Sequence record: OZ470804.1
Source: a phage
Direction: 5' to 3' (one strand)
DNA length: 64,000 bases
Position numbers and translations under genes: made by a program. Within the stretch, counting starts at the first letter, position 1. The number at the start of each line of letters is the position of its first letter. The notes under the pieces were generated by a model that saw only the letters and a program-made list of their open reading frames with translations, had not been told where the DNA came from and did no database searches. Shown one piece after another: positions 60,056 through 60,138 of this stretch.

Positions 60056-60138
60056 TATGGGACGATGTTAAGACTCTAAGGCATGAGCAACGGCTTCCAA
60101 CACCGTTTCAAAGGGGTTCAACTCCTCCGTCCCATGCC
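60056..60138 (+). tRNA. atypical tRNA-like gene with 9-nt anticodon loop
   Basis: acceptor ATGGGAC/GTCCCAT perfect, T-loop TTCAACT, CCA; only hairpin for anticodon arm is AACGG-CTTCCAACA-CCGTT. Confidence 0.4.

Follow-up and report, generated by a model that had tools for sequence, protein, structure and literature searches.

A conserved, unannotated probable tRNA-Trp with a rearranged core in the tRNA cluster of Felix O1-like phages

The window analysed here, a 64,000-nucleotide (nt) stretch of phage DNA (sequence record OZ470804.1), is assigned by Megablast to the Felix O1-like phages (genus Felixounavirus, subfamily Ounavirinae). Felix O1 itself is a classic in typing and biocontrol, and few coliphages have been sequenced as often as its relatives. 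The last part of the window holds a cluster of 22 transfer RNA (tRNA) genes called by ARAGORN (58065-63555, + strand); the called set contains no tRNA-Trp, no tRNA-Asp and no tRNA-Arg. Within this cluster lies an uncalled element of 83 nt, here named the Trp element, which an earlier sequence-only reading had described as tRNA-like and placed at 60056-60138. The element is there, one base further on, at 60057-60139 with its encoded CCA included. Felix O1 (AF320576/NC_005282) is 100% identical over 91 bases around it. What is new is that a phage family sequenced so thoroughly has a conserved but unannotated probable tRNA-Trp of deviant structure.

From 5' to 3' the Trp element reads ATGGGACG ATGTTAAGA CTC TAAGGCAT GAG C AACGG CTTCCAACA CCGTT TCAAA GGGG TTCAACT CCTC CGTCCCAT G CCA. 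Its main parts are those that the sequence-only reading had recognised: an acceptor stem with all 7 positions paired (ATGGGAC with GTCCCAT; 8 pairs counting G60064-C60128), a T-arm GGGG-TTCAACT-CCTC, a G73 followed by CCA, and an anticodon hairpin AACGG-CTTCCAACA-CCGTT with a Watson-Crick loop of 9 nt, drawn both by single-sequence folding and by RNAalifold on 14 relatives. The RNAalifold run, made independently of our hand-written structure, gives an 8-bp acceptor stem, 9 unpaired bases, a 3-bp D-stem, a 5-bp anticodon helix closing the 9-nt loop, then 5 nt of variable region and a T stem of 4 bp (Table 1). It agrees with the minimum-free-energy fold of the single sequence in drawing the acceptor/T stack as 8/4; as G8, C65 and A49 never vary, covariation does not separate this stack from a 7/5 stack with an A·C mismatch.

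Table 1 Parts of the Trp element in the window
Feature	Position	Strand	Basis
Whole non-canonical tRNA-Trp(CCA)-like gene, 83 nt with encoded CCA	60057..60139	+	Conservation, consensus fold, covariation, ARAGORN after deletion
Acceptor stem 5' strand, ATGGGAC + G8; 7 bp, or 8 with G60064-C60128	60057..60064	+	Covariation, RNAalifold
Enlarged connector/extra loop ATGTTAAGA, holding A9 and the stranded old D-stem strand TGTT	60065..60073	+	Unpaired in RNAalifold consensus
D arm: CTC (60074-76)/GAG (60085-87), G60072-C60088 possibly extra	60074..60088	+	Covariation, RNAalifold
D-loop, 8 nt, TAAGGCAT, with G18G19-like GG at 60080-81	within 60074..60088	+	
Anticodon helix 5' strand AACGG = standard 26-30	60089..60093	+	4 of 5 pairs changed on both sides
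9-nt loop CTTCCAACA: C31 unpaired, U32 U33 C34 C35 A36 A37 C38, A39 unpaired	60094..60102	+	31·39 never a standard pair
Anticodon CCA	60097-60099	+	
Anticodon helix 3' strand CCGTT = standard 40-44	60103..60107	+	Covariation, RNAalifold
Variable region TCAAA, 5 nt, invariant	60108..60112	+	Alignment, RNAalifold
T arm: GGGG/CCTC as stem (4 bp; 5 positions if the A49·C65 mismatch is counted), T-loop TTCAACT	60113..60127	+	Covariation
Acceptor 3' strand (C)GTCCCAT, discriminator G73 (60136), encoded CCA (60137-39)	60128..60139	+	G73 and CCA invariant in all relatives

Covariation was counted on alignment A2, which holds 14 Trp-element sequences (13 distinct), with a hand-written structure. Eight pairs change on both sides and stay paired: four of the five in the anticodon stem, two in the acceptor stem and one each in the T-stem and D-stem. 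Pair 1-72 occurs as A-U, G·U or G-C and pair 2-71 as U-A or C-G, while the anticodon helix takes the forms AACGG/CCGTT, GACGG/CCGTT, GTAAG/CTTAC and GTAGG/CCTAC. In the T-stem, the pair of alignment columns 59-73 goes from G-C to U-A. The D-stem is C18-G31, N19-N30 and C20-G29 in element numbering, and its middle pair flips from U-A to A-U in 6 of the 13 sequences; the same flip is also seen between two Suspvirus phages. Paired cells amount to 95.7%, against 33-54% once the 3' partners are slid by 1-3 columns, and the observed covariation score was reached by none of 500 shuffles. The T-loop is conserved among relatives as TTCRAHT. The folding energy of the single sequence is unremarkable and not significant (z = -1.56), so the case rests on comparative data. 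The Trp element is homologous to bacterial tRNA-Trp, with four covarying stems.

Searches with blastn found the Trp element in 234 phage records. Its carriers belong to Felixounavirus, Mooglevirus and, in part, Suspvirus (SUSP2 among them), with Escherichia, Salmonella, Shigella and Citrobacter as hosts; they are joined by relatives infecting Pectobacterium (Arno18, Wc4) and Yersinia (P778). We surveyed 60 records spread evenly over the ranked matches, with a query kept clear of the neighbouring tRNA-Ser, and none carried a tRNA annotation at this place: the entries were "none", "hypothetical protein" or an unannotated record. Scans of IMG/VR revealed no lineage of the Trp element beyond Ounavirinae (the matches of a 14-mer scan were mostly by chance), and searches with a T-arm pattern and a longer gapped pattern returned only further Ounavirinae copies. 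The "hypothetical protein" calls of a few records, like a minus-strand open reading frame (ORF) of 36 amino acids starting with TTG (60068-60178), are unsupported, because the substitutions follow the RNA stems.

Conservation of the gene can be set against that of its neighbours. Between the window and Arno18 the Trp element is 75% identical, compared with a mean of 69% (range 54-81%) for nine pairs of ordinary tRNAs, and the 60 bases upstream are about 51% identical, the background of a global alignment. When the window is compared with Mooglevirus Sf16, the 60 bases at 59997-60056 show 90% identity, more than the element itself (83%), and the next 100 bases 64%. By our own reading this block of 60 bases holds an extended -10-like TGAGATAAT (60026-60034); it may act as a promoter or as a processing site. 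A promoter and terminator scan at the element gave weak consensus matches, one of them inside or overlapping the start of the gene, and no terminator.

The sequence-only reading had centred on the anticodon loop and overlooked a larger anomaly: the acceptor stem and the D-stem are separated by 9 unpaired bases (60065-73), where 2 are standard. As it had proposed, we submitted the gene to ARAGORN, which leaves it uncalled at default settings and down to -ps90. Deleting any 6 consecutive bases whose first is one of element positions 9-14, or the 5 bases that begin at position 14, makes default ARAGORN call a tRNA-Trp(cca). ARAGORN and the Rfam tRNA model therefore miss the gene because about 6-9 extra bases enlarge the connector, and not because of the 9-nt loop.

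Aligned to E. coli trpT (a reference that was itself verified, from a genome with a single tRNA-Trp gene) and to the tRNA-Trp of the sister genus Kolesnikvirus, the element retains positions 8-15 as GA-TGTT-AA versus TA-GTTC-AA, and its positions 22-26, GAGC-A, are identical to trpT. The former D-loop has gained about 9 bases in this alignment, AA-GACTCTAA-GG. Among these extra bases is a new CTC, the partner of the old GAG, and the old 5' D-strand TGTT is left stranded in the connector. The connector GACGATGTTAAG is the best-conserved segment of the gene: 17 of 18 distinct sequences have it unchanged, and the remaining one differs by T10C. The copies of Arno18, P778 and Wc4 have 2 more bases ahead of the D-stem.

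Other folds of this region were considered. The D-stem implied by the sequence-only reading, TGTT/GGCA (A9-T13 with G24-T28), has no double compensatory change; its changes are single and G·U-compatible, apart from one break (T10C, in PC79-13). It would also bury the G18G19-like GG that normally contacts the T-loop, and RNAalifold chooses the other stem. A pseudoknot of both D-stems seems sterically implausible to us, because their 3' strands adjoin without a linker base. At -ps80 ARAGORN gives a low-scoring "tRNA-Pyl (cta)" in another register (about 60043-60114), which we reject because its U33 (T60075) is A in half of the relatives, being a covarying D-stem partner. A weak Rfam match to the Tymovirus tRNA-like element (13.7 bits, E=2) is noise.

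In the anticodon arm, position 31·39 forms a standard pair in none of the 13 distinct sequences: the Arno18 group has C·C there, and the others have C·A. The inner seven loop bases are Y-U-C-C-A-A-M in the 14 relatives, with U33, CCA and A37 invariant (T40-C41-C42-A43-A44 in element positions), and in most copies they are CUCCAAA, the loop of host trpT. At the other end of the helix, pair 26-44 covaries as A-U, G·U or G-C, so the helix still has five pairs. With 31·39 unpaired and the inner bases standard, the loop is that of a normal Trp anticodon arm, with a permanently open closing pair. Its widening is symmetric and adds no base to the anticodon. The sequence-only reading had held that automated folding into a standard 7-nt loop would speak against an expanded one. 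RNAalifold draws 9 nt, and ARAGORN, given the gene without the insertion, draws 7 nt closed by c·a; the two drawings are one structure in two descriptions.

Unpaired 31·39 positions are absent from the 22 called tRNAs of the window and occur in 5 of 102 over five Ounavirinae loci. The ordinary tRNA-Trp of Kolesnikvirus, callable by ARAGORN and annotated, has the core CGGC-CTCCAAA-ACCG with C31·A39 (phiEa21-4) or C·C (FIfi106), and the open 31·39 therefore predates the Trp element. The annotated Kolesnikvirus genes (phiEa21-4, L168:24578-24653; FIfi106, L171:159-234) keep only three standard pairs in the anticodon stem, which makes a weak stem a subfamily-wide trait of tRNA-Trp; in phiEa21-4 both 27-43 and 31-39 are unpaired.

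The determinants of tryptophan identity can be compared position by position. The bacterial set consists of G73, A1-U72, G2-C71 to G5-C68, A9 and C34-C35-A36 (Giegé and Eriani, PMC9976931, Table 1). All copies have G73, the CCA anticodon, A9, G3-C70, G4-C69 and G5-C68; pair 1-72 is A1-U72 in the window and G·U or G-C in other copies, and the sole departure from the set is 2-71, which is U-A in the window or C-G. The Trp element thus combines what defines a bacterial tRNA-Trp, namely a four-stem cloverleaf with covariation, a CCA centred between U33 and purine 37 and the identity set of tryptophanyl-tRNA synthetase (TrpRS), with dimensions that are not canonical: the 9-nt connector, a 31·39 open in 13 of 13 sequences, and a 49-65 that is either A·C or part of an 8+4 geometry.

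By ARAGORN, the window has no tRNA-Trp besides the Trp element. A tRNAscan-SE study of Sf14 (2025) listed 26 tRNAs for 19 amino acids, Trp being the absent one (PMC12482277), and Sf14 carries the Trp element. Kolesnikvirus, without the Trp element, has its ordinary tRNA-Trp between tRNA-Gly and tRNA-Thr, genes that are adjacent in the window, where the Trp element stands instead upstream of tRNA-Ser(UGA). TGG makes up 1.2% of codons in the ORFs of the window. The cluster differs from that of phage bumzen in three regions (58644-59075, 59148-59151 and 61618-62204), the window being without tRNA-Asp(GTC), without the additional tRNA-Met(CAT) that bumzen has between Lys and Ile, and without tRNA-Arg(ACG); as bumzen has tRNAs that the window lacks, tRNA content varies within the genus. 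For tRNA-Lys(ttt), ARAGORN gives 59076-59148 with the anticodon at position 30, and Rfam a start at 59073.

From these comparisons we propose, with a probability of roughly 60%, that the Trp element is a working, non-canonical phage tRNA-Trp(CCA), kept by selection and reading UGG. It would be transcribed together with the neighbouring tRNAs and processed by host RNase P and 3' trimming enzymes, the CCA being encoded. In charging it, host TrpRS would rely on G73, the CCA anticodon and the acceptor pairs, and the charged tRNA would then read UGG on the ribosome. In this way it would complete the 19-amino-acid set of the phage and supply phage translation when the single-copy host tRNA-Trp is limiting or attacked. 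A shortened anticodon stem is compatible with UGG decoding, as a tRNA-Trp(CCA) whose anticodon stem has 4 bp is the sole Trp tRNA of about 6.5% of the bacterial genomes that use the standard code (PMC13092985). Conceivably, the unusual core and the open loop alter sensitivity to host tRNA nucleases or the decoding of UGA; evasion of host tRNA nucleases is a general hypothesis of PMC10264068.

Several observations weigh against a working tRNA. SUSP1 has neither the Trp element nor another tRNA-Trp, an HNH endonuclease gene abutting its tRNA-Ser, and since SUSP1 does without it, the element is dispensable. Phage tRNAs are generally dispensable. In the bumzen group the T stem contains a U·U, and the copies of Arno18 (L005:1506-1591), P778 and Wc4 all have one additional base in the 3' acceptor strand (CGTCCTCGC), which implies a bulge there. 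The Rfam tRNA model RF00005 gives no match to the element in a 401-base search even at E<=10, and a literature search for a Felixounavirus transcriptome or tRNA expression yielded nothing usable. As the canonical U8 and the 2-nt connector are gone, the L-shape may be disturbed. The irregular allo-tRNA-like sequences, the only published tRNAs with an extra loop between acceptor and D stems, are not aminoacylated by E. coli synthetases in vitro (PMC7609411).

This last result also favours an alternative that we consider unlikely, in which the Trp element is a structured RNA derived from tRNA-Trp that stays uncharged and has a non-decoding job: it might punctuate the processing of the tRNA operon transcript, act as decoy or sponge on a defence sensor or tRNA-targeting nuclease of the host, or serve as ligand of a phage enzyme. 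The evidence for selection concerns structure, the core deviates strongly, and the near-invariant extra loop would suit a bound partner better than a neutral insertion; a similar xGTTAAxx-stem-TAAG..GG module is found in a neighbouring Arg-like element described below. Such an RNA, however, has no need for an invariant CCA, U33 and A37, for G73 or for Trp acceptor pairs while the flanking stem changes four of its five pairs. Supplying exactly the missing isotype is expected of a tRNA and would be a coincidence for a decoy.

A decaying tRNA-Trp pseudogene, tolerated since the host supplies tRNA-Trp, is improbable. It would account for the rejection by gene finders, the terminal mismatches in two stems, the disrupted D-arm region, the loss in SUSP1 and the additional defects of some lineages (the U·U in the T-stem and the acceptor bulge), and a dead Trp gene would likewise leave Trp as the missing isotype. 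Against it stand the eight double compensatory changes, with one of 273 counted stem cells broken in the favoured fold, and a conservation that at least equals that of functional tRNAs across genera whose flanks are randomised. The supposed junk insertion is the most conserved segment, and the defects at 31·39 and A49·C65 are fixed in all sampled copies rather than accumulating. Neither relaxed constraint nor conservation at the level of the flanks, as a pseudogene would show, was found; because of this evidence for selection, the missing isotype is poorly explained by a dead gene. The suggestion of the sequence-only reading that the gene may be degenerate is therefore disfavoured: anticodon, T-loop, GG, G73 and CCA are invariant, and the compensatory pairs in all four stems, together with conservation like that of ordinary tRNAs, indicate a selected RNA and not a decaying copy.

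It is about as doubtful that a charged Trp element also reads UGA, through the open 31·39 and the remodelled region of position 9 and the D-stem, for low-level or programmed read-through; this would refine the proposal of a working tRNA-Trp and does not exclude it. The D-arm mutations A9C and G24A (Hirsh) modulate nonsense suppression (PMC13092985), and the Trp element is changed in both regions concerned. The published effect, however, involves the top pair 27-43, which here is intact and covarying while the bottom pair is open. TGA is not depleted in the window, ending 21 of 80 ORFs (26%) in what is a crude ORF-based test, and the two TGA stops followed by a long in-frame extension lead into ordinary downstream genes with their own ribosome-binding site and ATG.

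Finally, frameshift-suppressor-like decoding, raised by the sequence-only reading, is, judged from anatomy only, highly improbable: engineered tRNAs with 8-9-nt loops can read extended codons and the Watson-Crick loop here has 9 nt, so that a four- or five-base codon might be imagined, but a suppressor would have an extra base in or beside the anticodon, a 4-base anticodon and typically an 8-nt loop, whereas the Trp element widens symmetrically by an unpaired closing pair around a central, invariant U33-CCA-A37 core as in host trpT, adds no base beside the anticodon, and shares its mismatch with the otherwise ordinary tRNA-Trp of Kolesnikvirus.

How far the Trp element has moved from known tRNA-Trp is best seen against E. 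coli trpT. Both have the anticodon loop CUCCAAA (in most phage copies), G73, the CCA end, A1-U72, the G3-G5 pairs, A9, A14-A15, the 3' D-stem strand GAGC followed by A26, and the T-loop. Only trpT has U31-A39, a 2-nt connector at 8-9, the D-stem GUUC/GAGC and a 7+5 acceptor/T stack. The Trp element has instead C31·A39, a Watson-Crick 26-44, some 9 extra bases that re-form the D arm, a 9-nt connector, the A49·C65 mismatch (or the 8+4 geometry) and U2-A71. The Kolesnikvirus genes of phiEa21-4 and FIfi106, from the same subfamily, are similar in the core of the anticodon arm, the open 31·39 and G73, but fold into a standard 76-nt cloverleaf with no extra connector.

A 2026 study recognised a bottom-unpinned class of tRNA-Trp(CCA) comprising 267 of 38,615 genes, in which the open pair has the effect of "lengthening the AL by 2 nt", and explicitly left it unstudied (PMC13092985). 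The Trp element belongs to this rare class: it has the CCA anticodon, an open 31·39 and a loop longer by 2 nt, which is the 9-nt loop of the sequence-only reading. The other members are all tRNAscan-SE finds in bacterial genomes and presumably otherwise canonical, whereas the Trp element is phage-encoded, invisible to gene finders and rearranged in D-arm and connector. Further tRNA-Trp(CCA) variants, the Blastocrithidia-like one with a 4-bp stem, the Hirsh (G24A) and A9C, are alike in that changes outside the anticodon (in the stem end, the D arm or position 9) alter UGA decoding. In the Blastocrithidia-like variant the top pair 27-43 is open and the loop has 7 nt, while in the Trp element 27-43 is paired (A-U or U-A) and the bottom pair is open. 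Compared with Hirsh and A9C, the Trp element keeps A9 and the G of the 24-equivalent position in sequence, in a rebuilt context. The likeness to the irregular allo-tRNA-like sequences that came out of soil metatranscriptomes (Mukai et al. 2017, reviewed in PMC7609411) is architectural only, lying in the extra loop and in the 8/4 stack as RNAalifold draws it: allo-tRNAs are tRNA-Sec-like, with long variable arms and Ser or Ala identity, and the Trp element has Trp identity elements and only 5 nt of variable region.

Upstream in the cluster, between tRNA-Ile and an HNH gene, lies another tRNA-like gene that is not called (59476-59557, + strand). This Arg-like element (UCU) is not called by ARAGORN even at -ps80, and its sole Rfam match is tRNA-Sec at 23 bits. 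It has the layout CGGGGCG-TAT-CTCA-[GCTGT CTTCTAA ACAGC]-CGTTAAC-CGAG-TAAGTGGAGTAT-[GCGGG TTCGAGT CCTGC]-CGCCTCG-A-CCA, with anticodon and T arms that are both normal, an acceptor stem of 7 bp, a discriminator A and CCA. At the usual place it has no D arm: the stretch from the acceptor to the anticodon arm is TAT-CTCA only, the CTC before that arm pairs with a GAG after it, and a D-loop-like GG-A segment leads directly into the T stem. Across 38 distinct viral sequences (one core motif), the CNN after TAT and the NNG before TAA covary as CTC/GAG, CGC/GCG, CAT/ATG, CGG/CCG, CAC/GTG and CTT/AAG, so that this D-stem encloses the anticodon arm; acceptor and anticodon stems vary freely, and the anticodon is UCU in 37 sequences and CCU in one. 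The gene is possibly a D-arm-rearranged tRNA-Arg. Its topology is reminiscent only of mitochondrial tRNAs that lack the D arm, and a 2024 paper describes all known bacterial tRNAs as canonical cloverleaves (PMC11551756). The Arg-like element is potentially more novel than the Trp element.

The Arg-like family extends over Felixounavirus, rV5-like, T5-like and jumbo phages and phages of Streptomyces, and hardly any record annotates it (one has "tRNA-OTHER"). Two HNH-type endonuclease ORFs lie within the tRNA cluster of the window, at 59572-59919 and 60509-60961 (both + strand), with the C-terminal motifs CSNCHRVRH and CPNCHSQFSRH; the first starts 14 nt after the Arg-like element. An HNH gene directly 3' of the Arg-like element is also found in the unrelated PHA46 (jumbo) and GZ8 (T5-like) and often in the family, an arrangement that suggests a mobile tRNA-like-plus-HNH cassette. 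The site of the pair in the window is that of an ordinary tRNA-Arg(TCT) in SUSP1, Sf14 and Henu12. In the spacer between tRNA-Ile and the Arg-like element, Rfam reports two sub-threshold matches at 59168-59351 and 59283-59474 (+ strand), to permuted transfer-messenger RNA (tmRNA; 31.3 bits, gathering 47, E=0.0015) and to tmRNA (15.4 bits); these are probably noise driven by tRNA-like parts.

The two uncalled genes have some sequence in common. The extra loop of the Trp element, TGTTAAGA-CTC-TAAGG (60066-60081), and the connector of the Arg-like element, CGTTAACC-GAG-TAAGTGG (59507-59525), follow one pattern: xGTTAAxx, the 5' strand of the D-stem, then TAAG..GG. Next to the anticodon helix, both have a mismatched pair, A·C or C·A. 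A common structural module or binding partner may underlie the pattern, or the two genes may have recombined. A bolder idea, which we regard as distinctly unlikely, is that Felix O1-type phages have re-engineered their tRNA-Trp, by the open 31·39 and the rebuilt core of position 9 and D arm, for near-cognate reading of UGA, or so as to be charged by TrpRS while unseen by host tRNA nucleases, and that with the Arg(UCU)-like gene it would form a class of phage tRNAs with non-cloverleaf cores.

If the Trp element is charged, these phages have a complete set of tRNAs for the 20 amino acids, which bears on the idea that phage tRNAs serve survival of host tRNA depletion. Charging would also make it a natural case, kept by selection, of a tRNA that serves E. 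coli and Salmonella translation in spite of a 9-nt connector and an open 31·39. As a member of the bottom-unpinned class in a phage, with an E. coli host and a single-copy trpT, it offers an easy experimental system for the decoding of UGG and UGA by this variant. More generally, tRNA finders undercount phage tRNAs with altered cores.

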